Under the pieces are notes generated by a model. The model was not told the origin of the DNA. It ran no database searches and was given only the letters and a program-made list of their open reading frames with translations. Below are positions 1,780-64,000 of a stretch of 64,000 nucleotides of DNA, one piece after another. This DNA is from a virus, in UHGV virus genome UHGV-1370141. One strand, 5' to 3'. The translations under genes and the position numbers were made by a program. Each line of letters opens with the position of its first letter. Positions within the stretch are counted from its first letter, which is position 1.

Positions 1780-1803
1780 CTCACCTAAGTAATATATATC
1801 TGA
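1780..1803 (-). promoter_or_regulatory. AT-rich promoter-like motif (class 1)
   Basis: transcribed strand TCAGATATATATTACTTAGGTGAG ~50 nt upstream of lipoprotein ATG; near-identical copy at 9569-9593. Confidence 0.45.
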
Positions 1804-1967
1804 AAATATTTTAATTAAAACACCCTCTAAAACGCGCTGTATCGCATTCTGACGACCTTTTATTTTTTAAACACCATTAATCGTCTTAAGGTGTAAAACA
1901 GCGTCTAAGACGCGTTTACGAGTAAATAAAAGGACATCCCGTTACCCACGAAGGTAACGGGATAATT

Positions 1968-9568: not shown

Positions 9569-9593
9569 CTCACTAAGGTAATATATATCTGAG
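9569..9593 (-). promoter_or_regulatory. AT-rich promoter-like motif (class 1)
   Basis: CTCAGATATATATTACCTTAGTGAG on transcribed strand, ~25 nt upstream of 9545 start. Confidence 0.45.
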
Positions 9594-9606
9594 TTTATTT
9601 TTAATC

Positions 9607-9655
9607 GAAAAAAAAAAGAAAAGGGAGAACCACCCCATTACAGGGTGGTTCTCTT
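9607..9655 (-). terminator. terminator hairpin
   Basis: A-run then GAGAACCACC-loop-GGTGGTTCTC, downstream of 9672 stop. Confidence 0.55.
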
Positions 9656-15007: not shown

Positions 15008-16312
15008 ATGAGTGACGAGACAGATAAGAACGATCCGGGGTATGACCCGAATACTGATTACGACGATTCTCTCCACAATCCGAATAACGCAGATGCGGTG
15101 CCTTCTGTTGCCGGGTATTTTAATAACCGACTCAGCAACAACAATCCGGCAACACCTTACGATGCAAACACCGAACTTACGGCATGGAACGATCGTATCC
15201 GCCTTACTGTAGGTTTGGGTCTTGCTGCGCAGCGTTTGACCAACCCCTACATGGGGTTCAACCATATGATGGCGTCTAACCCCACGCCAATCAACCGAGA
15301 ATACGGTGGTCTAACATTTATTACCCGGCCCGATTTCAACCTGTGCTACGACAACATTGCCAAGTCGCGTAAAATGTCAAACATGGCATTGCAGCCGAAG
15401 GACTCTTTAGATTATTCGATACTTGCTGCTCTCGACCCTGATTTCGAATTAGGGTTTTCGGACTCACCTGTTGAGAGCAAAACGGGGATACGAAGAAACC
15501 GCTTAGGTACTCCGTTTATGCCGCAGGTAAGATTCGATAATCTACAAGCGTTCATACCAATACTCAGTACACAGCTGATCAGTTTAAGCGGAACACCCGA
15601 TCAGTCCGTCGATAACTGGATGGCCAGTGAAGGTTTGATGCGTGAACAATGGGGTATGGTTGATTCTACGCACGAAATCAACAACGCGTTCTCTGTGTCG
15701 ATGTCCTTAAACAACCCTTACGGTGACCCATTAATGAGAATGATGGGCGTGTGGTTGGAGTATATGGCGGGTGTTAAGATGGGTAAGTTCCGTCCGAAGA
15801 TGCGCAACTCCATCCAACGACGCATTGATTACCAGTCACGTATCTACGGTCTACGTTACGATGCGTTAGGGAATATCACCCGTTTCTGGACAATTTGTGT
15901 AGCCTGGCCGATGAACGATAACGCGGGTCAAATGGCGAACGTCGATAACTCAAAACCGCAGTTAAACGACGACGTGACGATTAACATCAACTGGCAAGCA
16001 ATCGGGGCACGGTTTAACGATCCACTTTACATGGAGATGTTCAATAAAACTGTTGGGATGTTTAACCCTGATATGCTCCCGCAGCCCGGCTCAGTCGCTT
16101 CGGGGAATTTTATCCCGATGGCCAGCAGCCAACTTGTTCCTATCGCGCCACAGTTATTGCCTTTATTTAACTATTACGGTTATCCACATATCGATTCCGT
16201 ACGGCGCAAGCTTACCTGGTATGTCTACCAAGCAGACTATCAATATATTCTCAAGAAAGCAGGATTACTTGACAGTGTCAATGGTCTTGTTACAGAGGCA
16301 GGTACTAACTGA
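15008..16312 (+). CDS. hypothetical protein (434 aa), D/N/P-rich N-terminus
   Basis: ORF track; RBS GGAG 8 nt upstream. Confidence 0.65.
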   Translation: MSDETDKNDPGYDPNTDYDDSLHNPNNADAVPSVAGYFNNRLSNNNPATPYDANTELTAWNDRIRLTVGLGLAAQRLTNPYMGFNHMMASNPTPINREYGGLTFITRPDFNLCYDNIAKSRKMSNMALQPKDSLDYSILAALDPDFELGFSDSPVESKTGIRRNRLGTPFMPQVRFDNLQAFIPILSTQLISLSGTPDQSVDNWMASEGLMREQWGMVDSTHEINNAFSVSMSLNNPYGDPLMRMMGVWLEYMAGVKMGKFRPKMRNSIQRRIDYQSRIYGLRYDALGNITRFWTICVAWPMNDNAGQMANVDNSKPQLNDDVTININWQAIGARFNDPLYMEMFNKTVGMFNPDMLPQPGSVASGNFIPMASSQLVPIAPQLLPLFNYYGYPHIDSVRRKLTWYVYQADYQYILKKAGLLDSVNGLVTEAGTN

Positions 16313-19266
16313 TGAGTTCAACAACTTACGATACTTTGGCAAAGAAACTTCTGCTGTTCGCACACAACCCTGCGGCGATGCAGACAATGCTGCTAAACCA
16401 GCTTCAAGATGTTGAAGATGCCGATGGTCAGATTTATCTCCGTGACCCTACCGACCCTGTCGTTTATTTGGCAGAAATGGGAACGATGATGGGACACGCG
16501 ACGTTGATGGGGCTCCAGGAATCTATTCCTAAAACGTTCCCGTCAATGGCGCAGACTTACGATGACCTGTTCCGACACATGTCAGACGTGGATTACGTTG
16601 ACGTCTTTGCGCAGCCTGCTACTACAGAACTGTTACTGTTAATTGACGTTGACAGCTTAATCTCGAAAGCGTATCCGTTGCAAATCGCGGGGGTTCGTAA
16701 AGTCGTTATCCCACGTGACACGGTCTTTACGGTTTCTGGTTACACGTTTGCTATTCAATATCCAATTGAAATCCGCGTGCTTCCATACGGAACGAACGAG
16801 AACCCGGCTTTCCAGGTACTGTGGATTACTGAAACACAATCACCGATTTCACCGGTTTCCACGAACGCACTGGAATGGGAACTAACGTCCACTAACACAA
16901 CGTCGTCACAGCTGCTGGCTATTCATATCCCGGTTATGCAGTATGCAGTGAAAGAAGAAAGTAACACCGTCGAAGGTAACAACACTTTCGTCATGACCCG
17001 TGCTTACACTAACAAGTTCTTCTACGTTCGTGTTTGGATGAAAGCAACGGGCAGCAACAAGTGGGTAGAGATTCAGCACACCCACAGTCGCGATGTTTAC
17101 GACCCGAACACACCAACGGCGTTGATTCAGGTGGGTAACGGTAACATCCGTTGTACGATTCCGTCTATTTACATGGCGAAGAATCTCGTCAGTGGGACTA
17201 TCAGGATGGACGTCTATACGACCTTAGGGCCGTTGGAGTTAGACATCTCTGCATACCCGTCTGATGAGTATAGCTTCAGTCTACGTGACTTAAACGAAGA
17301 GTACGACGCGAACTATATCAACCCGATTAAAGCATTCTCTATTAAACAGCTTGCAGCAAAAGCTGGGAAGATGCTGTCGGGTGGTCGCAGTCAGCTCTCG
17401 TTCAGTGACTTACGTACTCGCGTTGTTAATAACGCTGTGGGTGCACGTAAACTGCCTGTGACGGAAAAGCAGCTCGAAGCTACGGTTTCCGATTACGGTC
17501 TTACGCTGTCTAAACCTAATGACTACGTGACCAGTCGTACGTACTTCATGACAGCACCGATGTTGGAATCGACGATTGCTAACGTCAGCTCACCGATTGG
17601 TACGATTACTGCGCCGTTCTATTTCTCCTGGAACGAGCTGGTTAATCTCCCGACAGTGAAAGTCAACGGTAATCGCCTGACCATTCTTCCTGACACACTC
17701 TATCGTTTTACGGATACCAGTCTGACTGTGGATGCCGAAATGACGGTGTTAGCGAAGACCATGCGTAAGGAAGACCTGATTAACGCAGCAAACACCAACC
17801 GTTATTTGTTTACACCGTTCCATTACGTTGTTGACATTAACAACAAAGCGATTGACGTGCGTATTTACCAGTTGGATAAACCGCTATTAAACTCCAAACG
17901 CTTTATTGCGACCAACGTCTCGACGGAGCTCAGCGTCGTTACTGCTGACTACACTATCGAGAAAACGGAAGCAGGTTATGTGTTGCGTACGATTACGAAG
18001 TCAGAGGCACCTTACCAGGCACTGACTGATGATCAAGTTTTTGCGCAGCTGTCTTTCCGTCCTCGTAATTCCGATAACACCTTGGCGTACATTAACGGTA
18101 CGTTAGTCGGTAAGCAGGGCAGTGAACGTGTTTGGGAGTTCTTGCTGGAAACTAACCTGGACGTTGACCGTAACGACGAACTGGTACTGACCAACACCCG
18201 TATTAACGGAAGTAACCCAACGGAAACCCCTGTCGCACTGCTGACAGATTTTAACCTGTTCTACGGTTGCACGGGTTATTACCCTGGGAACTACGAACGT
18301 GTAGAGATGGATACGTTAATCACAGCGCCTTCACGTGACGCTATCGGTATTACCCACGAGATATTCAAAATCGAACTGGGTAAAGCGATGACGTACTATT
18401 GGCGTAAAGCTCGTGCTGTTACTGACAGCATCAATTACGAGTATTACGACAAAGACGTGTTAGCGACGTGGGAAATTGACGTGGTGAAACGTGATGAGAA
18501 TGGGGTTCCGGTTTACACGTACGACGCAGGCCGTACACCACCGCTACAAATCACTTACGAACACCGTAAAGGCGATCCTAAGCTTGACGAAACCGGCCAG
18601 CAGATTATCCTACACCGCGAAGGGGACTTAGTAAAAGACGAGTACGGTAATCCTAAGATTGCGAAATCTCGTTCTATTAAGTTCCGTAGTGAAATGGCGG
18701 TCTTCGACGCACGTTATAAATTCGCTACCACAGCGTCTGCGAAATCCTATCTGAACGCAGTTATTGAGAATATCGTTAACTACGTGACCGTGGTTCTACC
18801 GACGTTAAAACCGATGTTGTTAGAACGTACGGAAGGGTATTTCGTTCCTATCACCACGATGGGTTATATCGATGCACGTACCGAAGACGGGGTGGTTACG
18901 CCGATACCGGCTGAAAACCAGTTTACCGTTCGTTATTACCTGACTGCGGCTAACCGTAGCAACAGCGATCTGTTAACGCAGATTCGTAAGAAAACGTCCC
19001 AAGTTATCAACGACTACTTGGGTTCACATCTTACTATCTCGGCAACAGAGATTGGTAATAAGCTCAGCGAAACGCTTGACACGTCGATTATCGGCGTTGA
19101 GTTGGATGCGATGGGGCCAGACAAAGACATGCGTCTGTTTACTGTGGTATCCGAAGCTGCGCGTGCAACGATTGGTAAGAGACTGGATATTGAAGCCAGT
19201 GGTGACATCGGTCTGAAAGACGATGTTGTTATCGTTTACAACCGTCACGACACCACCGCAGACTAA
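16312..19266 (+). CDS. hypothetical large protein (984 aa), possibly structural
   Basis: ORF track; start overlaps upstream stop (TGATG). Confidence 0.7.
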   Translation: MSSTTYDTLAKKLLLFAHNPAAMQTMLLNQLQDVEDADGQIYLRDPTDPVVYLAEMGTMMGHATLMGLQESIPKTFPSMAQTYDDLFRHMSDVDYVDVFAQPATTELLLLIDVDSLISKAYPLQIAGVRKVVIPRDTVFTVSGYTFAIQYPIEIRVLPYGTNENPAFQVLWITETQSPISPVSTNALEWELTSTNTTSSQLLAIHIPVMQYAVKEESNTVEGNNTFVMTRAYTNKFFYVRVWMKATGSNKWVEIQHTHSRDVYDPNTPTALIQVGNGNIRCTIPSIYMAKNLVSGTIRMDVYTTLGPLELDISAYPSDEYSFSLRDLNEEYDANYINPIKAFSIKQLAAKAGKMLSGGRSQLSFSDLRTRVVNNAVGARKLPVTEKQLEATVSDYGLTLSKPNDYVTSRTYFMTAPMLESTIANVSSPIGTITAPFYFSWNELVNLPTVKVNGNRLTILPDTLYRFTDTSLTVDAEMTVLAKTMRKEDLINAANTNRYLFTPFHYVVDINNKAIDVRIYQLDKPLLNSKRFIATNVSTELSVVTADYTIEKTEAGYVLRTITKSEAPYQALTDDQVFAQLSFRPRNSDNTLAYINGTLVGKQGSERVWEFLLETNLDVDRNDELVLTNTRINGSNPTETPVALLTDFNLFYGCTGYYPGNYERVEMDTLITAPSRDAIGITHEIFKIELGKAMTYYWRKARAVTDSINYEYYDKDVLATWEIDVVKRDENGVPVYTYDAGRTPPLQITYEHRKGDPKLDETGQQIILHREGDLVKDEYGNPKIAKSRSIKFRSEMAVFDARYKFATTASAKSYLNAVIENIVNYVTVVLPTLKPMLLERTEGYFVPITTMGYIDARTEDGVVTPIPAENQFTVRYYLTAANRSNSDLLTQIRKKTSQVINDYLGSHLTISATEIGNKLSETLDTSIIGVELDAMGPDKDMRLFTVVSEAARATIGKRLDIEASGDIGLKDDVVIVYNRHDTTAD

Positions 19267-19318
19267 AAAAAAATAAAAGCTACCCTACTCCCGAAAAGGA
19301 GTAGGGTACTTCTTTTTT
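19265..19318. terminator. bidirectional terminator between convergent genes
   Basis: A-run, TACCCTACTCC-loop-GGAGTAGGGTA, T-run. Confidence 0.6.
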
Positions 19319-24632: not shown

Positions 24633-24673
24633 GAAAAAATAAAAGCTACCCTACTCCTCTCGGGAGTAGGGTA
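24633..24673. terminator. terminator between convergent genes
   Basis: A-run, TACCCTACTCC-TCTCG-GGAGTAGGGTA; stem identical to the 19281 hairpin. Confidence 0.55.
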
Positions 24674-24680
24674 ATGCTTA

Positions 24681-25202: not shown

Positions 25203-26504
25203 TTAGGTGATATGGATCAACGGATCGTATTCTTGAACGACGGTTTCTTTACCGTGCATTGCGGCCATTGCCACGGACATAACGTTAGAGAACGCTGACG
25301 AAATATCCGCCGCGATAGCGCGAGGTTCTTCACCTTTCGCTTCGGAGGAGCACGCAGTACAGCAGTCGATGTGGCCGTATTGACATAAGATGGGTCGGCG
25401 TAGGCGCACAACTTTCCCTAGCTGACTATTCAAAAACTCTTCCGTCAGGGAGGTTAACTTCCCATTAACCATCGCATTCATCCCAACGTAACGTTTTACG
25501 TTGTCTTTCGTGATAACCACAGGGTGCGTGAGTTTCGTCCCACAGTCACCTGCAACGATTCGGTGGTTCTGGAAAATCATCTGGATGATACGTACCTGTT
25601 CCCCACCCTTCGCGGTTTCTGCACCACGCGAGAACGAACCTTCACGAATAGAGTTAAATTTCGCGACCAGGTTATCCATTCCCGCCTTATCAACTTCCAC
25701 CAGTGCGTTAGGAATTAACGTATAGTTACCCCCTTCCTGGAAAGACGATTCAATCCCGTACATCAGCATCAACTTTCGACGACGCATTCGTGATTTCGGC
25801 GAGTTATAGAACTCGATAGATTGGTCACCCGACAACCACTGTTTATCCAGTTCGTCCAGTGCTTTTTCTATCTTAACGATCACTGCTGGGTCGTCTAACT
25901 CGTCCTTATGCTTTAACAGCAACGCATCACGTATTTTATACGCATCAGGATGCACTGTAAGGCTTCTAAGTGTACCTGTTGGTGCAATACCAGCGGTTAA
26001 CGGTGCAAGTTCGTGTAAGCCGCTTACAAAGCGTTCTATCATGCTCGGACGAATAGCACCTTCGTTCTCAGGTTCATCGGTCTCGTGATCCAAACAACGG
26101 CGGTGCATCTCTTTTCGGTACTCTAATGGGTTTTGTGAAACGCCCATATACGGTAAACGTGTGCCAAACGCATACCAGATAACAACCCAGTTAAAGATAT
26201 AACGTCCTACGGTAGTAGGAATCGGTCCTTCTAATCCTGGGTAGTCATCGACTTTCAATTCGAACTGTTCTTCGGGAATAAACAGTTCTTGGTCTTTCAC
26301 GCCATCAGTAATGGGCTGCCAATCGCCTTTCCCATCTTCTACCGCGTAATAGTGCGGCATTCCGTCAATATACGTAATATCAAACGCTTCAGGTTCTTCA
26401 CGATTCGACGGGAACACTGACATGTTGAATATTGCAATACGCCACACTAAACGACGCCAGGCTTCAGCTTTACAAGCCGCCACCAGAAACTCAAATCTCG
26501 TCAT
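25203..26504 (-). CDS. hypothetical protein (433 aa), C-terminal Cys cluster
   Basis: ORF track; CQYGHIDCCTAC. Confidence 0.6.
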   Translation of the reverse strand: MTRFEFLVAACKAEAWRRLVWRIAIFNMSVFPSNREEPEAFDITYIDGMPHYYAVEDGKGDWQPITDGVKDQELFIPEEQFELKVDDYPGLEGPIPTTVGRYIFNWVVIWYAFGTRLPYMGVSQNPLEYRKEMHRRCLDHETDEPENEGAIRPSMIERFVSGLHELAPLTAGIAPTGTLRSLTVHPDAYKIRDALLLKHKDELDDPAVIVKIEKALDELDKQWLSGDQSIEFYNSPKSRMRRRKLMLMYGIESSFQEGGNYTLIPNALVEVDKAGMDNLVAKFNSIREGSFSRGAETAKGGEQVRIIQMIFQNHRIVAGDCGTKLTHPVVITKDNVKRYVGMNAMVNGKLTSLTEEFLNSQLGKVVRLRRPILCQYGHIDCCTACSSEAKGEEPRAIAADISSAFSNVMSVAMAAMHGKETVVQEYDPLIHIT

Positions 26505-32459: not shown

Positions 32460-34559
32460 TTACTCAATAATCGTTGCTGCGACAGAATTGTCGTACAACG
32501 AAGCAGGACGTTTACGTGACGTATAGAAACGTACGTTGTCCAAGTTCTTCTGCTGTCCCTCAAACAACAACATCGGGATTGCAGAACGCATCGCAATCAG
32601 TGTATTGTGATCTTCGAAGCGTTTTCCTTCTGCGGCATCGGCATCCTCACTGTCAAACCCTACTGCCGGGAATGGGTTAGTAGGTGACTCAACACGAGAG
32701 ATTGCCAACATAATCGCGATGTGCGTCATCGGAATCCCTTTGAGCTTACGTTGGATATATTTGAACACGTAGAACAACGCATGAGTACATTGTTTTTCCG
32801 TGGCACCACGCATCTGAACGAGGGTAATCGGTTTAACCTTACCACTCTTCTTGCTCAAACGCATTGACTCGTCCGAGAACTGTTCGAAGTTATCTGACTT
32901 GTCCGATGCTACCGAACGTAAAATCAATTCCAACCCTGCTACAAACTCCGCCATAGATTCAGACCGATTCGTATAAATTAGGATCGGCCAGGACGGTTTC
33001 CATCCTTTTAGCGGAACACGCACCGTTTTCTTGCTGGGGAATACGAGCTTATCACGATTCTTCAAGAAGAAGCGAAGGAACGACTTAGAGAAGTTACCGC
33101 AGACGCCCATTCGAACGTCAATCGGATCTTCTGCCAGGATGTTCCCTTCTGCATCTAAACGAACAAACGTAAGGTCATTAATTTCCGGGAGTGCCGTTTC
33201 ATCAATATCGTCCAGGTCTTCATGATACGCAATCTGGCTAATCTCTGAATAGACTTCATCCGAAATTACCAGTTGGTATTCATCCCAGGTACCGTATTGC
33301 GGCTTCTCCAGTAAACTAATCCCTTTAACGGAGTTGTGCTTATACTCCGTGAGATAATCACGCATTCTTGGCGACAAGACCAAGTTCAGCAGATAACGCA
33401 GGAAGTCAAGGTGTTTCGTCGACAGAATACCTTGAGTGCCCTTTTCTGAAATTGCGGTTGACGCAAGGTGACCCGGTGATGTGCCAGGTGACAGGTTATA
33501 AATCAAGTCACCCATACACGTTGCACAGATAGTCTGTCGTGACATCCCTTTGCAACACATCGCGGTACGGAACTCGATAGGTTTGTTCAAGACTTTCTCA
33601 AACTCACCGTCTTCGAATCGTAACCACGGACCACCAGTACCTTCGAAGCGATAACGCATTCCTTTCATCGCTTTGAATTTCGCTTCTTCCAACGGCGAAT
33701 TCGTAAAGGTGTGTCTGTGTACGTGATGTGTACCACAGTCTTCGTAATCGAAGAACATCAGCACGTTAGCCGCTAACTGCAACTTACGCGATGCGTACTC
33801 TGCGTCTGCAATCTTGTCGGTATTATACAGGTGAGAACGCGATGTCGCACCTGCTTCTTTCAGTCGACTGATAACAGAATGCAAGCCGGTGAAGAAACCT
33901 TCCCATACCTGGTTAGAGTACACACGGGAGTCAATCTCTGAAGTCTTACCACGAATGTAAGCCTGGAGAATCTGATCCATTTTCAGTGTGCGGTCTAACA
34001 CAGACATGACAACTGGGTTGTTTGAGAGTCTCGGATCTTTAAAGATTTTCTCAATGAGTTGATAGGCTTCTTCTACCTTATCGTTACCTTCCTCATCGTA
34101 ACCCGTCGGATAGAGTTTAGACCATTCGATAATCAGCTTGAAGTTTTCATGCTGATAAATCTCCATCATCGTATCGTAGTCAATGGTAACACAATACGAC
34201 AACAGGTTTTTCACCGTCAGGTTAAACGCGTTTGCATAAACGTGCTGCGATAACAGGTAACGGGTATCGGCCAGATCCACTCCGGCCTTACGTGCTGCTA
34301 CAGCTGCCAACGACATAAAGCGCAGATGCGCATCGTCAGTTGCCGTGTCGCCATGCTTATACGCCATGTTCGACGAGATTGGCACTTGGGGATAAAACTG
34401 GGTTAATCCCCAATACGGCCAGCTCAACTTAATGTGTCGACCAGACATTCTCAACGTGACCCCATCGTCGAAGGACACGTCGTAAACGCCCCGAAGTAGC
34501 CACACCTGATCCGAATTCAACTTGCACAAGTCTCTTACGTGAACCGGAGTCGCCTTCAT
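32460..34559 (-). CDS. RNA polymerase beta'-like subunit, C-terminal module
   Basis: CATCMGDL ... ASTAISEKGTQGILSTKH resembles bacterial RpoC CAHCYGRDL ... AAQSIGEPGTQLTMRTFH (recalled). Confidence 0.7.
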   Translation of the reverse strand: MKATPVHVRDLCKLNSDQVWLLRGVYDVSFDDGVTLRMSGRHIKLSWPYWGLTQFYPQVPISSNMAYKHGDTATDDAHLRFMSLAAVAARKAGVDLADTRYLLSQHVYANAFNLTVKNLLSYCVTIDYDTMMEIYQHENFKLIIEWSKLYPTGYDEEGNDKVEEAYQLIEKIFKDPRLSNNPVVMSVLDRTLKMDQILQAYIRGKTSEIDSRVYSNQVWEGFFTGLHSVISRLKEAGATSRSHLYNTDKIADAEYASRKLQLAANVLMFFDYEDCGTHHVHRHTFTNSPLEEAKFKAMKGMRYRFEGTGGPWLRFEDGEFEKVLNKPIEFRTAMCCKGMSRQTICATCMGDLIYNLSPGTSPGHLASTAISEKGTQGILSTKHLDFLRYLLNLVLSPRMRDYLTEYKHNSVKGISLLEKPQYGTWDEYQLVISDEVYSEISQIAYHEDLDDIDETALPEINDLTFVRLDAEGNILAEDPIDVRMGVCGNFSKSFLRFFLKNRDKLVFPSKKTVRVPLKGWKPSWPILIYTNRSESMAEFVAGLELILRSVASDKSDNFEQFSDESMRLSKKSGKVKPITLVQMRGATEKQCTHALFYVFKYIQRKLKGIPMTHIAIMLAISRVESPTNPFPAVGFDSEDADAAEGKRFEDHNTLIAMRSAIPMLLFEGQQKNLDNVRFYTSRKRPASLYDNSVAATIIE

Positions 34560-36799
34560 TATTCTTCGCCCCTTTTCATTTTCACCAATTCAAACCCTTC
34601 ACAGCTGTGAATGTTTTTCATCATTCTGTCAATCTGCGAATCTCCTAATGGGAGCTTATTCCGGTCTACCAGTACGCCCGGATTGGAAGGAGTTTGAGAT
34701 CGGTACAGCCCTACTAAAATCTCTCGATGCACAGCAGGGTTATTTGCCCTATCGTGAACCTCTTCGTAGTTACCTGGACCATAACCCGCTAATAGTCGTT
34801 CTTCCGAAGGACCAGCCCATTTCAGCGTTTTATAGTTTACCGGATACGAACCACGTCCTTGGTTAGACGCATCAATCGTGCCCAGGTAGTTCAGGTACAT
34901 CGACGAAATACTTGAGAATTCACGTCCCGTTTTATCAAGCCGTAATGTTTCTACACCACCCACGTAAAACTCGTCTTTTGTCCATTCCTGTTTACCATCG
35001 TAATTGGTAATAAGCAGTTTCGACTTACGGGGTTTAAACTCACCTAAACGTTCACTGATTTCCACCGGAGTGTCATCAAGTTCGTGAGGTAAGTAAATGC
35101 GGATGGTGAAATCGTAAATCTCTTTAAAGAGTTCTCGCTGCAAATCCTCCGTAGGATGCGTAGCCTGTAACGTGTTCGCCCATTCTGGATTATAGCGTGA
35201 AAGGTAGTCCATCAGGATTTCCCAACACTCGCCAATACGCCCTTCATCCAGCATCGGTTTAAGACGCATCTTCAGTTGTTCAGATGCTGCTGACCAATAC
35301 ATGTGGAACAGCGCGGCGTAAGTAGAACGACGAATTACGGCGTTCATTGAACGTAGTACGTGAACACGTTCGCCGAACTCGTTAATTGGCATCTGTTCAA
35401 CTGGCAGTACACGACCCACAATCCCTTTCGTACCCGAACGGTCGGTAATCTTAGAAGACACCGTCACCGGGATCGGATAACGTACCGCGATACGAATTGT
35501 GTACGTGTTGATAGGATCGCTTAATCCACGCTGAACAGGTGAAGTCAGTTTAGAGATAATCTGTTGACTTACGTTCTCTTTACCGTATTCGCCGCGACGA
35601 ATTGCATCTTCAATCACTCCGCGAATTTCTTCACGAAACTCTGCGTAGACTTCGTACGTTTCAGATGCGAAAGCTTTCTCCAGCAACACACACGCTTTGG
35701 GAGACCAGATAACGTTTTTATCTCTCGACACGGAGAAATAGAAGCGAACAATCGCATTGTAGTAGTCCTTTAACGCCAATGCGTATTTGTCAAGCTCACG
35801 TTTGTTCTCTTCAGTACAGTTAATGTTATTCGTTCCATTACCGCATGACGTTTCATCACGCCAAACCTGAATATCAACAATGCGTGTTCCGCTACGTTCC
35901 ATCAGTTCGTGGTTGTTTTCCAAACGTGCTTTATAGTGTATCGGATCGGCATCCACGTAATCACAGTTATCGAAGAACGGAGAAACGTGTTGGGTTTCTC
36001 CTAAGGTTGCATCGATCGCTGCGTACAGGTCATCGAAACGACGAGAAGCGATAACTAACCCGTCATCACGAATCGCTTCACCCACGTCTGGGAAATAGCG
36101 CGGTACACGATTCCCCTCGGGATCGTTATAGCCGTAGGTATCCAGCAAGAATTCATCTTCACGTAAGGTTTTCTCAATAACTTTCAACCCATACCCGTGA
36201 AGCTTCTGTGCCGCTTCTTCGGAAATCGTGTAGGAATCTTCGATAATGTCTGGATGTGAAATGGTAACCGTTGGCAGCACCGCACTGTCTGCGAATTCAC
36301 CATCCACCATGCACGGCATTGTCGTCAGGATTTCATCCTTTTCTAACTGGTCGGTTTCACCACGTAACAAACTGCGCAGTTTTGGCGATTCCCATTTCTC
36401 GGAAGAGAACACGTTATCGTGATTAGTATAAAAGTTAATCTCGATAACATCTATCATTGTTTTGCCCGGAATACGGCATTCTGCACGACGGAAGAATATC
36501 GCGTGTTCCAGCGCACGGGAATCCCCACGACGGCCATAACGGGTAAACGTTGCGCGACGTTGTCTACCTTCCTTAGTTGTGTAATGACAGATGCTCCCAC
36601 TGTCTTCCACAATATCGTTAAACAGAAAATCGTGGTAATTGGTATCTGCTCCCGTAAAGTGAGGTGACGGCTCAGGATGATCAATCGGCACCGAGGACTT
36701 CATATGGTTACCTACCATCGATGCCCTTGCACCTGACACCTGTGCGATATTAACTTCACGGTCAGCGACGCTGCTCAATAGCTCAACTGGCGTTTTCAT
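34559..36799 (-). CDS. RNA polymerase beta-like subunit, C-terminal module
   Basis: SKITDRSGTKGIVGRVLPVEQMP resembles RpoB [24 protein letters not shown] (recalled); RBS AACCTAAAGGAG. Confidence 0.7.
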   Translation of the reverse strand: MKTPVELLSSVADREVNIAQVSGARASMVGNHMKSSVPIDHPEPSPHFTGADTNYHDFLFNDIVEDSGSICHYTTKEGRQRRATFTRYGRRGDSRALEHAIFFRRAECRIPGKTMIDVIEINFYTNHDNVFSSEKWESPKLRSLLRGETDQLEKDEILTTMPCMVDGEFADSAVLPTVTISHPDIIEDSYTISEEAAQKLHGYGLKVIEKTLREDEFLLDTYGYNDPEGNRVPRYFPDVGEAIRDDGLVIASRRFDDLYAAIDATLGETQHVSPFFDNCDYVDADPIHYKARLENNHELMERSGTRIVDIQVWRDETSCGNGTNNINCTEENKRELDKYALALKDYYNAIVRFYFSVSRDKNVIWSPKACVLLEKAFASETYEVYAEFREEIRGVIEDAIRRGEYGKENVSQQIISKLTSPVQRGLSDPINTYTIRIAVRYPIPVTVSSKITDRSGTKGIVGRVLPVEQMPINEFGERVHVLRSMNAVIRRSTYAALFHMYWSAASEQLKMRLKPMLDEGRIGECWEILMDYLSRYNPEWANTLQATHPTEDLQRELFKEIYDFTIRIYLPHELDDTPVEISERLGEFKPRKSKLLITNYDGKQEWTKDEFYVGGVETLRLDKTGREFSSISSMYLNYLGTIDASNQGRGSYPVNYKTLKWAGPSEERLLAGYGPGNYEEVHDRANNPAVHREILVGLYRSQTPSNPGVLVDRNKLPLGDSQIDRMMKNIHSCEGFELVKMKRGEE

Positions 36800-36828
36800 T
36801 TTAATGCTCCTTTAGGTTGATTCGGTAG

Positions 36829-36844
36829 GATAATATCTATCTCA
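36829..36844 (-). promoter_or_regulatory. AT-rich promoter-like motif (class 2)
   Basis: plus-strand ATAATATCTATCTC ~30 nt upstream of the 36799 start; same core at 58186, 60572, 50513. Confidence 0.4.
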
Positions 36845-36862
36845 CTTAATTTAGGAACAACT

Positions 36863-40359: not shown

Positions 40360-42021
40360 TTACTGATTAAACCACGCCACTTCTTCACATTTCTTCCTGT
40401 TCTGAATTAACAGGAATTCTGCTAACATGTTCTGAAGTCGTGGGTGTGGTGTGTAGCCTAACATCACTTCTCCACTCCGAAGCATTCTTGCTGCTTCAGG
40501 TGTTGCCCTGAGATTGAAGTTAAACGGCGCAATATGTTCACGTACCAACAACGTCAAAGACGTCTTCAATGTTGACTGTTCGTAGATATTGCGATTGGTA
40601 CGGTATGCCTGAGGATAAAATCTATCCGATTTTATTTTGATCTCATTATCAATAGGTTCGATTGGATAACCCCCATTGTTGGGATCTAAAACCATTTCAC
40701 AGCTTAGCAACTGTGCAATCTCATGCATTCCGTAGTAGATATAAATCGCTTGTGCGATCCCCATTGCATTCTTAAACGCAGCAGCGTCAATGTCCTTATA
40801 GGTTCTGCGGTCAGCAAAGCGATGCAGTGCGGCTGCAACCAACCACTCGTACAGTTCGTAGAACGGATATTGATGATTCAGGTGAATAGAATCAATCAGT
40901 ACCTTAGCATCCGCAGGAGCGATATCGATCCCTAAGGAACGAACCACACGACGATAATCGTTGAAAAACTCTTGGGTACGAACAAACTCTTTCATCGGCG
41001 CTTTAGAGCGCGCTTGAACCAAGTCTATCGCACAAGTTTTCCCTTTCTCACCGTTAAACATAATCTTTTCAGGATGCGCTTTTAAGATGACGTTCTGTGA
41101 CGAAATCTTTCCTGCAAATCCTGTTTCGATTTCCTGCTTGATATTAAAGTACATCCCTGCAACGATGTTGTTCTCCACCATCGTACCTGGAGGTAACTCT
41201 GCGCCGATGAGTTTCATGGCGATTAAGCGAATCACCGCGAATGCCATGATGTACTCTTCCACCATATCCGTACCGTAACCACAGATAGAGGCCAGCACCG
41301 TTAAGTTCGCACTGTTCGGTCCTTTATTGCCACCGTCCTGTACTTTCGAAATCACCGACACTAAGAAGTCCCGCAATTTACTGATTGCAGGTAGTTGTGC
41401 TATCTCGGTGTCGTAAAGCAATTCCATGCAATGGGTTAAGTTATAAACGCTTTTCCGCTTGGAGTCCACAGCGGCGCGTGTTGTTGGGAAAGCATCCATG
41501 ACCAAGAATACCGGAATGAACGGTTTTACCATCAACGACAGTATGACCAGTTCGTAGTAGTCTTGTACGATATACGTCATCTCTTTCGGATAGTTAGATG
41601 ACATTTCTTCGTAAGTTTCGTGGACGTTTTGAGGAATCCACACGGAGCTTTGTGGATAGAGTTGGCGGAATCTGTCCGCGTGGTGGAATTTGGCAATTTG
41701 TGCAACAATCTCTGGCGCATGTTTACGAATCGTTTCGGGTTCTTCATTACCCAGCATTTCTAACTCTTCGTACGCCGAGAATAATTCTTCCTTTTCCTCC
41801 GACGTTAACGTTGACCAATAACGTTCGATTTCCATGAACATAATTTTGTCATGGGTAACCACTTTGCCGGAGCTATCGCGTACGTCTGGCACATTCGCAT
41901 CTTTGCGTCCATTACGGAATCCGTTAAACCCTACTTCCTTATCACCGTAACTAATAATGAGACGGTCGCGATTTTTCTCAATACGCATTTTAAAATCTCC
42001 AGGGATAACATAGTCGACCAC
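40360..42021 (-). CDS. hypothetical protein (553 aa)
   Basis: ORF track; GTG start. Confidence 0.6.
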   Translation of the reverse strand: MVDYVIPGDFKMRIEKNRDRLIISYGDKEVGFNGFRNGRKDANVPDVRDSSGKVVTHDKIMFMEIERYWSTLTSEEKEELFSAYEELEMLGNEEPETIRKHAPEIVAQIAKFHHADRFRQLYPQSSVWIPQNVHETYEEMSSNYPKEMTYIVQDYYELVILSLMVKPFIPVFLVMDAFPTTRAAVDSKRKSVYNLTHCMELLYDTEIAQLPAISKLRDFLVSVISKVQDGGNKGPNSANLTVLASICGYGTDMVEEYIMAFAVIRLIAMKLIGAELPPGTMVENNIVAGMYFNIKQEIETGFAGKISSQNVILKAHPEKIMFNGEKGKTCAIDLVQARSKAPMKEFVRTQEFFNDYRRVVRSLGIDIAPADAKVLIDSIHLNHQYPFYELYEWLVAAALHRFADRRTYKDIDAAAFKNAMGIAQAIYIYYGMHEIAQLLSCEMVLDPNNGGYPIEPIDNEIKIKSDRFYPQAYRTNRNIYEQSTLKTSLTLLVREHIAPFNFNLRATPEAARMLRSGEVMLGYTPHPRLQNMLAEFLLIQNRKKCEEVAWFNQ

Positions 42022-42121
42022 AAAGATAAAATCTATCTAAGATAACTTCGACTGTGTTCTGCACACATACACGATAAGAAGCCCCAGGATTCCCTGGGGC
42101 TGAATTATTGTTTTACGTTAA

Positions 42122-46498: not shown

Positions 46499-48456
46499 CT
46501 ACCCCGCCATTAAGATTAATTCTGAGTCGATGGCGATACCCGCCTCCAGATCTTCTTCGGTATCGCGTAAGAAACGGTTTTCCATGCTGATAAGCTCATT
46601 GTGTAACACCATGCTGCTAGACACTTCGTCTACGTTTGTGCTGGACATAAATCCGTTATCTGGGCGATAAGCCAGCGCCAAATCCATCTCCGTGGTATCG
46701 ACTAAAAGTCTAACCTGTAATTGGTCGCCGTCGAAATCCTGTTTGTCCACTCCATTCCTTTTGGAGCAGGTGTGCAATGACACCCTCCCATGTTTTCACA
46801 TGGGCACAGACTATATCATAACCGTAGGTATTGCTACCCGTAGGTCTCCCCCACTTCGCCGCTAAACTAAGCAGCTACTCTACTCGGTTTTACCCTTTCG
46901 ATAGTCGTTGAACGATTTTCATCGCTGCTGGTTATCCATTATCACAACCCTTAGCATTATTGGTTAGCATAGGCTATCTTACGAATTGTTTCTGACTTTC
47001 GCCACCCTGTCGGGATCGTAAGCTTTAGGAGTTTCCAGCAATTCGAGGGATACGCACTAGAGGTTTCCCGTCTAGTGGGCCAAATTTTAGCATTCGGAGC
47101 TTTGATGACGCGATCGGAGATACGTAACGAACACTGTGTAACATCAGGGTTAACAGCTGAGATAAATAATGTCTGAATAGACAACTGTACAAGCGTCGGG
47201 TTTCGTAGCGCTGATATCATCAGGCCGTAACCGCCACGAGACTCCTTAATAAGTTCGTTGATAATTTCATGAACCAACGGTACGTACTGCATTGATGCAA
47301 ATGCAATAACACGTTCACACTGCCGTGGTGTGAAGTTCCGTCGACCGAGTTTGTTTTCAATAGCTACAGATTCTAACGTCACTAGCCAACGCCAAGGTGC
47401 AATAACCTTCATAGCGTCATGCGGTTCTGAGATTGGAGAGATTGTTACACGACCACCCCACGGGATGTGTGTTGAACCTAACTTGGCACGATAGAATCCA
47501 GGTTTACCTTCCATCACCTCCTGACGATGGTCAATATAGAAGTACGCTAACTGGCGATTTGCTTTTAATGCGCGACTAATAATGAAATGGGTTGGGATGC
47601 GTCGTGCATTAGTATAAAGTAACGCGATGTTCTTAACCGCGTCTATTGCACCGGTATAAACAGGATCGATAAAGATACCCTGACGTCGTTCCTCCGTAAC
47701 GATCAGTTTGGGTGAAATGATTGGAAGATGAACCGGAAAGAAAGTGTGTGATTGTTCTTCGAAGAACTTTTTCCACTCTAAGCGAGTACGTTCGCTCTCA
47801 TATCGGTTATTTTTCGTTGGTGGATAAATTTCTTTCCAGACTTCAGGAGAAGTTAAGATATTGAATATTGTTCGATGGTGGTCAATAAAATTCCTAATGC
47901 CGCGTGGAACTTGATACTCGCTAAAGATACGTTTGATTATTCGGGATCGAGTACCTTCGTCTTTATCAGGTTTATAGCACGGATCTAACATCCACATCAA
48001 TAAATCAGAACCACGTTCTACGGTCACTTTGTTTCGGTTAAACTTCTTAAGTTTAGAACCGAAGAAAGCGTTAAACATCGACCAGAATCGTGGGTTAATA
48101 AAGTTGCCTATTTCCTCCGGGGCACGAATCCAGACTTCTGAAACAATACGATGTTCTGTCACTACATAGCCGCAGGTAGGACATCGCATACCGAGATTAT
48201 ATCGATGAACGATAGGTGCTTCACAATCAATACTACAAATGGGTGCCGAATTTAGCGTCTCGTCGACTGTCCGGTTCTGTAAGATTCGGTTAATCAACTC
48301 TGACGTCTCAATGGTGTCTTTATATTTCGCAACATCATTGATAATCATCGGCGGTTTATAGCCCTTTTCCTCCGCCTCTTTGAAAGCGTCACGTAACATT
48401 TTATCGTGACTGATTAATCGCCCTGATACACCGAAGTATTGTAATCTGTCTTTCAC
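46499..48456 (-). CDS. RNA polymerase beta'-like subunit, N-terminal module; intron-interrupted (exon 1 ~47150..48456, exon 2 46499..~46783)
   Basis: exon 1: Zn finger CSIDC...CPTCG, GKPGFYRAKLG...GGRVTISP, ISALRNPTLVQLSIQTLF; exon 2: HTCSKRNGVDKQDFDGDQ ... FMSSTNV. Confidence 0.65.
46784..47150 (-). other. group I self-splicing intron (no internal ORF)
   Basis: minus-strand GTTCAACGACTA (R-like) and GATATAGTCTG (S-like) P7 elements, P9-like hairpin before exon 2, frame change between exons, no RBS; boundaries approximate. Confidence 0.65.
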
Positions 48457-48544: not shown

Positions 48545-50383
48545 TCAGACAGGGCTGTAGTTACCGGAAGCGAATGACATGTTGTAGTCACTGCCGAAGG
48601 AGTTCGGGCCGTTACCAGACAGAGTGAAGTTTTCACCGCCGTTGTTGAAGAACAACGTATTAGCCAGGCTATTGACTGCGGTAACACCATTCACTTGGAA
48701 GATGCAGTTATCACGCACGTAGTCCAGCAGCGCTTTGGCGAATTTCGGGTTGATTGCCAAATCGGTGGACTCGCCAGTTACGACCGGCTGTTTGCTGCCG
48801 AACAGGGAAGCGGCCAGCTTCAGCAGGTACAAACGCTGTTCAGTCGCGTTGAACTGACGGTGTGAGTAAGATTGCGCGTACAGGTAAGTGTAGGCATCGT
48901 GTTGGTTATCACCAACTTTGCTCAGAACAGACACCAGGTCCTGATCCTGGAAGCTACGTTTCTGGCTGTTGCTGAAATACTGACCGGAAACAGTCGGTAC
49001 GCCAGCGATAACAACGTGGTTGCAGGTGATGGTATTAACTTTCAGCATTTCAGCGAAACGCTGCGTGAACACCGTAGCACCTTTCGGAGCCATGTTGTCC
49101 AGGATGGTCAGGATGTTAGACAGTGTACCAGTGTTACCCTGGGAAACTTCACTGAACATCGTGGAGAGACCACCGATACCGTTACCAGCACGATGGTTCA
49201 CAACCAGCGCAGCTTCTGGGTAGGCGAACATGTTCAGGCACTCTTCGATAGCTTCGCGGTTGCCATCGATTTTGCTCAGGTCCGGACGTTTGTCACCCCA
49301 CTCTACGTATTCCATAACGCGGGAGAAACGACGATCGGTTTTGTTGAGAGAGTGCATGAAGCGTTCACGCCAGCCACCGATAGCGGCGATTTCTGCAAAG
49401 GCGGCCAGTTCAATCAGCTGACGTTCGATTGGTACCATAGCCCCGGAAGACTGAGAGTCCATCAGAGAAACAACAACTTCTGCTTGCAGCTGTTTGTAAT
49501 CCTGTACGCCATTTTCAGGTGCACGGCGGCCAGTGTAACGCAGGTTGATGTAACCCACACCCGCAACGCTCGGATAACCCTGAACACGTTCAGAGGACAT
49601 CAGCGTCGGGTTAGTATCGAAGCTACCGGTCTGAGTGTGTTCAACCTGAACCATCAGGTCAGCACGTTGTGCAGAGCCGTTAACGTCAGTCAGAGAACCT
49701 TCGTCTACCGCAGTTACCTGTGCAACGAAGCGATCGCCACGAGTCAGTTTCAGCTGACCCAGGTAGCCCGGAATACGGCCAAAGATACCCAGAGTCAGCT
49801 GACCCATCAGCTGGATAGCCCACTCTTCGGTCAGCGTTTTACCCAGGTCTGGAATGCAGTTCATTACCATGAATTGCACAGACGACAGGTTCTGCTGTTC
49901 GCAGATTTGTTTGGTGATGGAATCCATTACGCCAGCCTGACCGAACAGAGATGCCAGGGTGTAATAAGTTTCTTTACCGTTGATTTCACGGAAGCGTACA
50001 GACTGACCGTGTTCGAAGAACAGGATACCGTACATCCAGTGGCTGCCGTTTTCATCTGCTGGCGCAGCAACGTATGCCGCAGAACCCATTTCTGGATTCA
50101 CACCATCGATAACACCGCAGCGGAATTTGCTCAGGTACGGGTTACGTTCAACCATCTTCGCAATCAGCGCGGTGAAATGTGAAGCGGCAGAAACGTAGGA
50201 CATATAGCCGAACGCTTTATCGAAAGTGGAGATATTCTTAGACATACCACCGAAAGCATTTGCTGCGTGGGTGTTATCCACACTGCCTGCACCAGCACCT
50301 ACACCACCAAAAGACGGAGCCGGGTCTACACCAGCAGCGCCAGCATTTACGTTGTTAGGAATTTCGTTAAACTCTTTAGCCAT
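48545..50383 (-). CDS. chmA: 612-aa protein with Gly/Ala/Ser-rich terminal extensions; chimallin-like nuclear-shell candidate (alternative: structural protein)
   Basis: flexible N- and C-terminal segments, strong RBS, own terminator, immediately upstream of the RNAP beta' gene; identity inferred from context only. Confidence 0.45.
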   Translation of the reverse strand: MAKEFNEIPNNVNAGAAGVDPAPSFGGVGAGAGSVDNTHAANAFGGMSKNISTFDKAFGYMSYVSAASHFTALIAKMVERNPYLSKFRCGVIDGVNPEMGSAAYVAAPADENGSHWMYGILFFEHGQSVRFREINGKETYYTLASLFGQAGVMDSITKQICEQQNLSSVQFMVMNCIPDLGKTLTEEWAIQLMGQLTLGIFGRIPGYLGQLKLTRGDRFVAQVTAVDEGSLTDVNGSAQRADLMVQVEHTQTGSFDTNPTLMSSERVQGYPSVAGVGYINLRYTGRRAPENGVQDYKQLQAEVVVSLMDSQSSGAMVPIERQLIELAAFAEIAAIGGWRERFMHSLNKTDRRFSRVMEYVEWGDKRPDLSKIDGNREAIEECLNMFAYPEAALVVNHRAGNGIGGLSTMFSEVSQGNTGTLSNILTILDNMAPKGATVFTQRFAEMLKVNTITCNHVVIAGVPTVSGQYFSNSQKRSFQDQDLVSVLSKVGDNQHDAYTYLYAQSYSHRQFNATEQRLYLLKLAASLFGSKQPVVTGESTDLAINPKFAKALLDYVRDNCIFQVNGVTAVNSLANTLFFNNGGENFTLSGNGPNSFGSDYNMSFASGNYSPV

Positions 50384-50430
50384 TTTATTTATCCTTTAAA
50401 GGTTTAATACAATTGTAGTGTTGGTTCACG

Positions 50431-50546
50431 TAGATAACATATACCTGAGATATTTTAGAATGCGTCTAGAACACACATAACTCAAAATAGTTAACCACCG
50501 AACCATCACATAGATAATATCATTCTCAGATATTTTTCAATGTGAG
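50431..50546 (+). promoter_or_regulatory. two tandem ~35-bp promoter-like direct repeats in a divergent intergenic region
   Basis: TAGATAACATATACCTGAGATATTTTAGAATGCG and TAGATAATATCATTCTCAGATATTTTTCAATGTGAG. Confidence 0.4.
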
Positions 50547-50589
50547 TAGAATGTGACCGTTTCCTATGTGTAACCCCAAGGAGTCAGTC

Positions 50590-54125: not shown

Positions 54126-54165
54126 AAAAAAGAAAAAAAAAATAAACCCTCTCCGAAGAGAGGGT
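54126..54165 (-). terminator. terminator hairpin
   Basis: long A-run then ACCCTCTC-CGAA-GAGAGGGT. Confidence 0.55.
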
Positions 54166-54172
54166 CTTAACT

Positions 54173-58152: not shown

Positions 58153-58185
58153 TAACTTTAAATACTCCTTTAAGGGAACATCACA

Positions 58186-58200
58186 GAGATAATATCTATA
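58186..58200 (-). promoter_or_regulatory. AT-rich promoter-like motif (class 2 variant)
   Basis: plus-strand GAGATAATATCTATA ~35 nt upstream of the corrected start. Confidence 0.4.
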
Positions 58201-58318
58201 CGAAAAAAGTTCGAGTATAGTGCGCACAGGAAGGGCATAGAGTGTATTTTTTAGTAGTGGTGTAGTTACCCATTACCCGATCCTATGAACCGTTTTACAG
58301 AGCTAACAGGAGCACACA

Positions 58319-60563: not shown

Positions 60564-60588
60564 ACTCACTAAAATAATATCTATCTCT
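60564..60588 (-). promoter_or_regulatory. AT-rich promoter-like motif (class 2)
   Basis: plus-strand ACTCACTAAAATAATATCTATCTCT ~45 nt upstream of 60520 start. Confidence 0.4.
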
Positions 60589-60601
60589 AAAATTTTGCGA
60601 T

Positions 60602-60638
60602 AAAAAAGAATATACCTACCTCCTTTCGGAGGTAGGTA
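60602..60638 (-). terminator. terminator hairpin
   Basis: A-run then TACCTACCTCC-TTTC-GGAGGTAGGTA. Confidence 0.55.
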
Positions 60639-60740
60639 CGTTCCCTGGCATCGGCATGAAACTACAGGATTAAACCCTTCAGGGCATGAGAATGGGCATT
60701 CTCGAAGGGCGGGCTTTAGCTTTCGGCAGAGCTAAACTGG

Positions 60741-61388: not shown

Positions 61389-62041
61389 TTCTGTTACCTC
61401 GTTCTGTTACTACTACTCGTTCTGTTGTACGTCGCTATACCCCGACGTGTGGGTTAATGGGACGCGTTGAACGTCTGTTGAGGCGCAGCAGGCAGTGGCA
61501 GCAATGACAGCAAGGGCAGCAATGGTACAAACGCCAACGCGAATAAAAAACGCTACTGTCACTGAACACAGCTTCAGAATACTGACAATAACGCAAAAAG
61601 GGTGTCGCTAACGGGTGTCGAGCCCCAGCCTCGGTGTGTAGCCACGTCACCAGGCATAGCGACAAAGTTCGGTACTGGTCAAACACAGCATGACATGGGA
61701 CGATGAAGGTTTACAGGTGATCATCGACCAGTACCGTCGAGTTAACACGTAACTCTCAATTCACATTACAGGGTATTCACGTTACACTTAGGGGAAATAC
61801 CCAATAATTAAATTCTTGGTGGGTGCAGGTGGGAGGTTTTATCCTCCCACCGTACAACCGTTTAGGTGGTCTAACCACCAGGGTCTCACGACCCTAACGT
61901 AAGTCCGAACTTAATCGGTAGGTGTTTACACGTTTTTAAGGAGCTTTCTACCCGTGAGCAAGAGCAGAAGTTATCAGAACAACCGACGCTCAGTTGAAGG
62001 CTGACGAGTTTGTAACTCTTGTTCGATTGCTCTAATCTGGG

Positions 62042-62114
62042 CGACCAATGGCAGGATTCGAACCTGCGAAATAACCGATTATTAGTCGGGTGTTAATTCC
62101 TCTAACTTCAATGG
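62042..62114 (-). tRNA. tRNA-like gene, possibly degenerate (anticodon loop reads as AAU)
   Basis: hand-folded cloverleaf: T-arm GCAGG-TTCGAAT-CCTGC, D-arm GTTA/TAAC with GG loop; but A at position 8, a U-U acceptor mismatch and a C-U anticodon-stem mismatch. Confidence 0.4.
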
Positions 62115-62124
62115 TCTAAATCCA

Positions 62125-63649: not shown

Positions 63650-63858
63650 AAAAGGGGAATGGGGGTTTACCCCTTGGGTCAGGTGTTCAGGATCTCCCCG
63701 GAAGGGTAACCCCTACCCGATCCCCCAGGTGGGGATTTTACCCTGGCGAATTACCCCGGGTACGATTTTCGGTTTTTCCGGAAAATACCGCTCACCGATC
63801 CCCACCCCCTCACCGGGGGTCAGAGCGAGATCAGATCTCATAATAAGGATCGCGCGCG
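63650..63858. repeat. GC-rich cluster of short palindromes and G/C tracts
   Basis: GGGGAATGGGGG, CCCCAGGTGGGG, TTTTCCGGAAAA (perfect 12-bp palindrome), CCCCACCCCCTCACCGGGGG, GATCGCGCGCG; no credible ORF. Confidence 0.45.
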
Positions 63859-63977
63859 TTTTATATATATTTATATATAATATATATTATATATAATAAT
63901 TATATTATTAATATATTTATTTAATATATTTATATTTATTAAAATAAATATATATTAAAATATATAATTAAATAATA
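63859..63977. repeat. 119-bp tract of pure A+T
   Basis: no G or C between ~63859 and ~63977; TATATA/ATTAT-type low complexity. Confidence 0.7.
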
Positions 63978-64000
63978 CCAAAAGGTATTATTATTTTGAT

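Follow-up and report, generated by a model that had tools for sequence, protein, structure and literature searches.

A conserved directional motif, which recurs ahead of minus-strand genes in the window (the whole 64,000-nucleotide stretch analysed here, from virus genome UHGV-1370141), is very probably the early promoter of a phiKZ-like jumbo phage (Chimalliviridae, SPN3US/Asesino-type). By analogy with such phages, it is likely that the invariant G at the downstream end of the motif is the transcription start, that the element is read by an injected virion RNA polymerase (RNAP) as infection begins, and that the resulting transcripts serve to build the phage nucleus and a second polymerase. 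The window derives from a jumbo phage whose relatives include Erwinia phage Asesino/phiEaH2 (Erskinevirus) and Salmonella phage SPN3US (Seoulvirus); the nearest sequenced relative shares ~71% DNA identity, with 76% protein identity for the RNAP gene and a conserved gene order. Elements of this kind are already known, and the window represents a new example rather than a new mechanism.

Sequence, position and reading of the recurring motif

The first-pass annotation had reported three copies of a plus-strand core ahead of minus-strand starts. The exact 14-mer, ATAATATCTATCTC, occurs only at 36830-36843 and 60574-60587 in the 64-kb window, while the copy before the start at 58152 (58189-58202; ATAATATCTATACG) is a variant with three mismatches. 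A variant that had been placed at 50513 could be recovered as a two-mismatch copy at 50514-50527 (ATAATATCATTCTC), but this lies 131 nt from the start at 50383, and a second copy at 50434 is nearer to the same start (51 nt). An additional two-mismatch copy, absent from that annotation, is found at 42026. Four matches to the 14-mer are obtained with at most two mismatches (0.42 expected; four reached in 0/100 shuffles) and fifteen with at most three (4.5 expected). The distances from core to minus-strand start are 31 nt (36799), 37 nt (58152) and 54 nt (60520), roughly in keeping with the 30-50 nt originally given. As the 14-mer exceeds chance and the distances are near those claimed, yet exact copies are fewer, the earlier observation of a repeated motif is real but slightly overstated.

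The 14-mer forms merely the core of a directional motif of 22-40 nt on the minus strand, the gene strand on which nearly all of the neighbouring genes are located. Read on this strand the core is GAGATAGATATTAT, with extension in both directions. The full motif comprises an A-tract (approximately -30 to -25), a T-rich segment (-24 to -21), the sequence nAGATA[G/T]ATATTA[T/C] (-19 to -7), six variable bases and an invariant G, which usually forms part of GTGA. Eight members, all on the minus strand and all intergenic, are present in the window, and are listed below with the plus-strand coordinate of the core, the sub-type (A or B, as considered further on) and two adjoining or associated terminators.

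1781..1818, minus strand: predicted sub-type A early promoter before the 47-codon ORF from 1731 to 1588; core 1789, 22-mer 1781-1802; 29.0 bits; start G 1782; orthologues Asesino 66944 and SPN3US 65412
9570..9607, minus strand: predicted sub-type A early promoter (CAGATATATATTAC) before the small gene starting at 9518; core 9578, 22-mer 9570-9591; 32.4 bits; start G 9571; orthologues Asesino 57391 and SPN3US 56293
36822..36859, minus strand: predicted sub-type B early promoter before the non-virion RNAP (nvRNAP) beta-C/beta'-C genes; core 36830 (GAGATAGATATTAT, exact 14-mer), 22-mer 36822-36843; 26.7 bits (leave-one-out 15.8); start G 36823; 24-nt leader to the ATG at 36799
42018..42055, minus strand: predicted sub-type B early promoter before the phiKZ gp68-like gene and two more (41988 to 37222); core 42026, 22-mer 42018-42039; 27.7 bits; start G 42019; leader 31 nt
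50426..50463, minus strand: predicted early promoter, proximal copy of a tandem pair before chmA; core 50434 (CAGGTATATGTTAT), 22-mer 50426-50447; 27.4 bits; start G 50427; leader 44 nt
50506..50543, minus strand: predicted early promoter, distal copy of the tandem pair before chmA; core 50514, 22-mer 50506-50527; 28.5 bits; start G 50507; leader 124 nt
58181..58218, minus strand: predicted sub-type B early promoter of the nine-gene operon from 58152 to 54173; core 58189, 22-mer 58181-58202; 27.6 bits; start G 58182; leader 30 nt
60566..60603, minus strand: predicted sub-type B early promoter before the small genes from 60520 to 59185; core 60574 (exact 14-mer), 22-mer 60566-60587; 32.5 bits; start G 60567; leader 47 nt; orthologues Asesino 5026 and SPN3US 4426
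60612..60639, minus strand: intrinsic terminator of the upstream gene, adjoining the 60574 promoter; 12-bp stem followed by a T-run
54144..54167, minus strand: intrinsic terminator closing the nine-gene operon; 10-bp stem followed by T9

Using a 22-nt position-weight matrix built from the window sites, with both strands scanned and leave-one-out and shuffled-sequence controls included, the eight sites score between 26.7 and 32.5 bits (15.8 to 30.1 bits under leave-one-out), while the best non-member on either strand of the window reaches 9.4 bits and shuffled sequence yields a mean maximum of 10.1. The predicted +1 G, called on base conservation rather than on mapped starts, is present in 8/8 window sites and in 20/20 sites of the Asesino genome. 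The bases A-13, T-12, T-10 and A-8 are likewise invariant in both sets, T-9 is invariant within the core of the eight window sites, and A-29 and A-28 are found in all eight, with positions -26 to -21 being T-rich. Between the predicted start G and a start codon with a ribosome-binding site lie 24-53 nt, with the exception of the distal tandem copy (124 nt). Furthermore, several sites are situated directly behind the hairpin-plus-T-run terminator of the preceding gene, as at 60639-60612.

The core invites comparison with a bacterial -10 element, as TATTAT differs from TATAAT at just one of six positions, with its end 7 nt ahead of the conserved G. [quoted passage not shown] It is nevertheless very improbable that the sites act as host sigma-70 promoters, whether or not a weak -35 is present, considering that the invariant AGATA at -19 to -15, A-29/A-28 and G+1 fall outside the sigma-70 contacts, that the same motif family functions in phiKZ and AR9 with no need of host RNAP or protein synthesis (PMC7598289, PMC5312081), and that SPN3US particles without the virion RNAP are not viable (PMC5694885). 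A scan of 48-64 kb with the sigma-70 consensus yielded 25 matches where 25.0 were expected, with no -35/-10 pair reported on the minus strand at the four motif sites in that region, and the sigma-70 reading was rejected on this lack of excess and of matches.

Several copies of the motif (58189 and 50514) contain the near-palindrome AGATA-T-TATCT, and reverse-strand matrix matches of 8-16 bits occur at palindromic sites in the window, Asesino and SPN3US, as might be anticipated if the motif were an operator, bound by a regulator of phage or host origin, rather than itself a promoter. However, the sites at 36830, 60574, 1789 and 9578 lack the palindrome, and the flanks are asymmetric (A-tract upstream, GTGA downstream) with a uniform orientation relative to the gene, while the fixed 24-53 nt to the start codons and the placement right behind terminators suit a promoter. 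A symmetric operator was thus rejected, as the palindrome is limited to some copies and all sites are directional, and a regulator-binding role in place of promoter function can hardly be credited. The early-promoter reading agrees with the sequence, geometry and gene context of the sites, and the proposal of a promoter-like motif ahead of RNAP beta-C, the operon and other genes is upheld.

Downstream genes and conservation among relatives

Genes were assigned by synteny with the Asesino and SPN3US annotations, which was preferred over the heuristic gene map. Five of the genes behind the motif sites are as follows.

34559..36799, minus strand: nvRNAP beta C-terminal subunit (phiKZ gp71-73 homologue); 7ogp_C PHIKZ071, E 3e-30
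32460..34559, minus strand: nvRNAP beta' C-terminal subunit (phiKZ gp74/SPN3US gp35 homologue); 7ogp_D PHIKZ074, E 7e-33
40360..41988, minus strand: phiKZ gp68-like fifth subunit of the nvRNAP; 7ogp_B PHIKZ068, E 7.8e-10
46517..48456, minus strand: nvRNAP beta' N-terminal subunit (phiKZ gp55 homologue), downstream of chmA; 7ogp_A PHIKZ055, E 7e-30
48545..50383, minus strand: chimallin (ChmA), the phage-nucleus shell protein; 54.8% identity to SPN3US 15888-17612

The product of 34559..36799 also matches AR9 7s00_C and PHROG family 3295, with 76.5% identity to Asesino gp51, and its gene shares a transcription unit with 32460..34559, whose SPN3US counterpart gp35 is the nvRNAP beta' C-terminal subunit (PMC5105663). 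The 612-aa ChmA could be identified by one route only, namely through SPN3US 15888-17612 (YP_009153316.1), which is given as the ChmA of SPN3US in PMC10643120: neither Pfam nor a PDB sequence search returned a match, PHROGs gave "unknown function", and all tblastn matches were to "hypothetical protein". The gene occupies the same position as phiKZ gp54, upstream of gp55. The nine-gene operon matches Asesino gp26-gp34, and its earlier delineation from 58152 is borne out by an ATG with an AAGGAG ribosome-binding site, the closing terminator and this match. Both RNAPs are encoded in the genome, which carries four nvRNAP subunit homologues and a homologue of the virion-RNAP beta'M subunit (25203-26504; 72% identity to SPN3US gp42), with no early motif detected before the latter gene in the matrix scan. 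A place for the motif in a temporal expression programme, as first suggested, is thus supported by its occurrence before chmA and the four nvRNAP subunit genes.

Two further features were observed within the nvRNAP genes. A group I intron (46787-47099, minus strand; Rfam RF00028, 63.7 bits, full-length model) splits the beta'-N gene 46517-48456. Asesino gp40 aligns in two pieces flanking it, with amino acids 6-456 corresponding to 48441-47089 and amino acids 445-530 to 46786-46517 in another frame, and Asesino therefore lacks the intron; a split, accompanied by an HNH endonuclease gene, also occurs in phiKZ gp55/gp56.1. Within the 3' region of the gp68-like gene, ~280 nt upstream of the gene that follows, the motif recurs in partial form (CGGATAGATTTTATCCTCAGGC; 40607-40628, minus strand; 8.6 bits), with counterparts at Asesino 25971 (13.1 bits) and SPN3US 25225 (20.6 bits, a strong match), and this copy may serve the gp69-like gene as an internal promoter.

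When the matrix derived from the window alone was applied to the complete 246-kb Asesino genome, twenty sites scored above 17 bits, all on the plus strand and each ~40-120 nt ahead of the next annotated start, where 0.65 matches above 14 bits would be expected by chance. None of the twenty first downstream genes in Asesino carries a virion structural annotation. The same pattern is seen in the first 100 kb of SPN3US, and positional orthologues exist in both Asesino and SPN3US for 8/8 window sites. Those of the nine-gene operon promoter are Asesino 8009 (before gp26-gp34) and SPN3US 7389, the tandem pair before chmA is kept at Asesino 16336 and 16428 and at SPN3US 15613 and 15706, and AGATAGATATTATC of the 36822..36859 site is retained in the orthologous intergenic region of both phages. 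Of the columns from -36 to +3, 67% are invariant in all three phages, as opposed to 24-27% in the flanks. The position of the motif relative to start codons, the loss of which the first-pass annotation had regarded as decisive against its proposal, is therefore conserved in the window, the whole Asesino genome and 100 kb of SPN3US.

Similar elements are found in the more distant phiKZ (NC_004629), where motifs at 44922, 45568, 57984 and ~63040 occupy places orthologous to window sites. These include AAAAAAAATTTGAGATCTATATTAC-(6N)-G before gp68 and a similar motif before chmA, both of the TATATTAC type, while a TATATCAT variant, GATCTATATCAT-AGTTT, precedes gp53 and gp70.1/gp71. On the basis of these two forms phiKZ may also have two sub-variants, and its motifs before gp54, gp68, gp53 and gp70.1 would, judging from their sequence, be of the early type.

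From homology and gene context, transcription is predicted to begin at the invariant G, six bases past the core, in agreement with the mapped starts of phiKZ and phiR1-37, which lie 6 nt past the element (PMC5312081). The element would be read by the multisubunit virion RNAP, carried within the capsid and delivered together with the DNA, such that neither host polymerase nor new protein synthesis would be needed. The first-wave genes would probably comprise those for ChmA and the four nvRNAP subunits, the nine-gene operon and several small genes, with the nvRNAP then taking over middle and late transcription, and the upstream intrinsic terminators would insulate the transcription units from each other. 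In other phages the early products include the nucleus protein and nvRNAP subunits (PMC10612078); the nvRNAP/ChmA genes of phiKZ, AR9 and Goslar are early and made by the injected polymerase (PMC7598289, PMC10612078, PMC10541120), and in Goslar start sites for both chmA and the nvRNAP subunit gene behind it are seen at 5 min (PMC10541120). An early promoter ahead of nvRNAP genes is not universal, as in 201phi2-1 transcription of the beta-C/beta'-C homologues gp129/gp130 is reported to proceed from a "middle" promoter (PMC11512511). The sites provide a sequence-level map of the first transcription wave in an uncharacterised jumbo phage, predicting that the nuclear shell, the second polymerase, the nine-gene operon and small takeover genes are switched on by the injected polymerase, and should be of use in annotating and engineering such phages.

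Several other elements occur in the window. The word CCTATG is present on the plus strand at 50545-50565 and 58275-58290, ~25-40 nt upstream of divergent plus-strand genes, with the form TTCCTATGTG before the gene at 50590, and both Asesino and SPN3US retain it. Given its likeness to TATG, the core of phiKZ late promoters, the word may mark late (nvRNAP) promoters. Between convergent genes at 19267-19316 and 24633-24680 there is a near-identical long hairpin (TACCCTACTCC...GGAGTAGGGTA), with T-runs to either side on both strands, and the two copies look like reused bidirectional terminators. At 63860-63990 lie ~130 bp of nearly pure A+T with many overlapping palindromes, possibly an origin, a genome end or a regulatory region; the non-coding DNA ahead of this block (63600-63840) is rich in G+C and repeats a word resembling ACCCCTACCCGATCCCC. 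The region corresponding to the tRNA cluster of Asesino, which includes tRNA-Ile(aat), encodes a single tRNA-Ile (anticodon AAT) at 62040-62116 on the minus strand.

Two correlated sub-types of one motif family

The motif designated class 2 in the first-pass annotation (TAGATATTATC) is one of two correlated sub-types of a single family, with the site at 50434 representing a mixed T/T form.

Sub-type A: core CAGATATAT(A/T)TTAC(C/T)TAGGTGAGA; window 1789 and 9578; leader ~44-61 nt; small accessory genes
Sub-type B: core nAGATAGATATTATCnnnGTGA; window 36830, 42026, 50514, 58189 and 60574; leader mostly 21-36 nt; conserved core genes

The difference in two bases between the sub-types goes together with differences in leader length, in gene set and in the presence of a 5' stem-loop. 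Among the Asesino sites the base pair T-14/C-7 occurs seven times and G-14/T-7 twelve times, with a single mixed site. A stem-loop at +1 is found at 13/15 sub-type A or mixed sites and at 7/26 sub-type B sites (p = 3e-4), although these counts include orthologous sites and are consequently not fully independent; in Asesino alone the corresponding counts are 7/8 and 1/12. Across three genera, seven of eight orthologous sites keep their sub-type. In the window the predicted sub-type A transcripts open with such a stem-loop on the minus strand (9571-9550 and 1782-1763), which for the 9570..9607 site takes the form GAGATTAC-aca-GTAATCTC (fold energy -8.5 kcal/mol, z -2.5), with differing stem sequences in its orthologues. 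This variation in stem sequence, by site and between orthologues, suggests selection for structure, and the stem-loop could be an mRNA-stabilising 5' hairpin.

Class 2 had been regarded as distinct from a class 1 motif, and as evidence of a second promoter class. A noisy search of the intergenic gaps for 9-mers with one mismatch recovered, besides terminator tails and ribosome-binding sites, just the words of this family. Sub-type A may thus correspond to class 1, being the only other strong recurrent intergenic motif found. The CAGATATATATTAC-(6N)-G sites at 1789 and 9578 share the architecture, spacing and matrix scores of the class 2 sites. The distinction is doubtful as originally drawn, and if CAGATATATATTAC is class 1, the two would be variants of one early family, albeit with the correlated differences given above, rather than temporal classes read by different enzymes.

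Sub-type B could alternatively constitute a separate delayed-early or middle class, read by the nvRNAP or a modified virion RNAP, with sub-type A (TATATATTAC plus stem-loop) being immediate-early. The correlation of the two variable bases, the bias in stem-loops, the difference in leader length, the division between accessory and core genes and the retention of sub-type at orthologous sites would all accord with this, as would the middle promoter before the homologous RNAP pair of 201phi2-1 (PMC11512511). However, architecture, spacing, invariant positions and the upstream A/T element are common to both sub-types, intermediates exist (SPN3US 4426, G/C; Asesino 162908 and window 50434, T/T), and one orthologous site switches sub-type. 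Both forms are, moreover, contained in the OBP/N1M2 consensus as K and Y (PMC7058600), and the middle (TACT/A-rich at ~-22) and late (TATG) motifs of phiKZ are quite unlike the motif (PMC7598289, PMC8244752). The nvRNAP would also be incapable of first transcribing its own genes. A separate class is accordingly improbable.

Within a single early family, a tentative and rather doubtful proposal is that the sub-types form two separately tuned regulons, with stem-loops and accessory genes in sub-type A and short unstructured leaders and core genes in sub-type B. If so, A and B would differ in timing, strength or mRNA stability, and immediate-early and delayed-early waves would arise from one injected polymerase. 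The two sub-types and the 5' stem-loop represent a modest, testable lead.

Comparison with known phage promoters

Functional analogy exists with T7-type promoters, which are 23-bp conserved, phage-specific elements present in many copies per genome and independent of host sigma factors, and in T7 the transcripts of one class open with a 5' stem-loop. T7 differs in that its single-subunit polymerase is made after infection, and the promoter sequence and recognition mechanism are unrelated.

Closer counterparts are found among jumbo phages. A review states that a motif of this type can be found upstream of the early operons of every RNAP-encoding jumbo phage, and that wherever tested it is a virion-RNAP early promoter, independent of host RNAP and protein synthesis (PMC7598289). 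A literature search found no transcriptome or published promoter set for SPN3US/Asesino-type phages. The window motif shares with phiKZ-like early promoters a ~10-nt AT-rich core near -10, a G 6 nt downstream and a T-rich element, together with the coding of both RNAPs, its location at co-oriented operon heads and tens of copies per genome above chance. It departs from the phiKZ-type late promoter, a short TATG at the start with no upstream element, in being long, in having a conserved upstream part and in not conserving TATG at the start.

In AR9, 41 early promoters of the form AAATATATATTAT-(6N)-G+1 have been mapped by dRNA-seq (PMC5312081). The likeness to the window consists of a ATATATTAT core, six bases and a G start, and the AR9 early sites are read by the injected virion RNAP with nvRNAP genes among the early genes. 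AR9 differs in its uracil-containing DNA, lack of a phage nucleus, Gram-positive host and the upstream part of the element.

PMC7058600 gives a predicted early consensus of TBYAWWWWWTTTCARRYAKATATTATYWAAGTGWA for N1M2, with ...YAKATATTATYWWADTG for OBP, ...BTATATTACDWHDGTG for 201phi2-1 and TATATTAC for phiKZ. The window motif is near base-for-base like those of OBP and N1M2, with window 60574 reading AAAATTTTAGAGATAGATATTATTTTAGTGAG, and the likeness extends over the A/T-rich upstream part, CAGR, YAKATATTAT and the GTG at the start. The OBP/N1M2 motif occurs ~30 times per genome at operon heads, with one copy before an RNAP beta subunit gene, and its degenerate K and Y coincide exactly with the two positions by which sub-types A and B are told apart in the window. 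OBP and N1M2 belong to other genera with other hosts, their consensuses are also sequence predictions, and neither a K-Y correlation nor a 5' stem-loop in one sub-type is described for them in the text of PMC7058600 consulted.

The early promoters of phiKZ, of which 28-32 sites read by the virion RNAP are known (PMC8244752, PMC10914365, PMC7598289), consist of an extended -10 and a T-rich element upstream of -19 (PMC8244752). They have the same core (TATATTAC, equivalent to sub-type A) and the same geometry as the window motif, and the gene order is shared (SbcD, gp66, gp67, gp68, gp69, gp70, gp71-74, helicase), with motifs at matching places before chmA, gp68 and gp70.1/gp71. The phiKZ promoters are experimentally early, whereas the window clade is known from sequence; phiKZ lacks the TAGATATTATC form, has the variant GATCTATATCAT instead, and its proteins are distantly related (E 1e-10 to 1e-33). 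Ahead of chmA, gp68 and the beta-C/beta'-C pair, promoters have thus stayed in place from the window phage to phiKZ despite very low protein identity.
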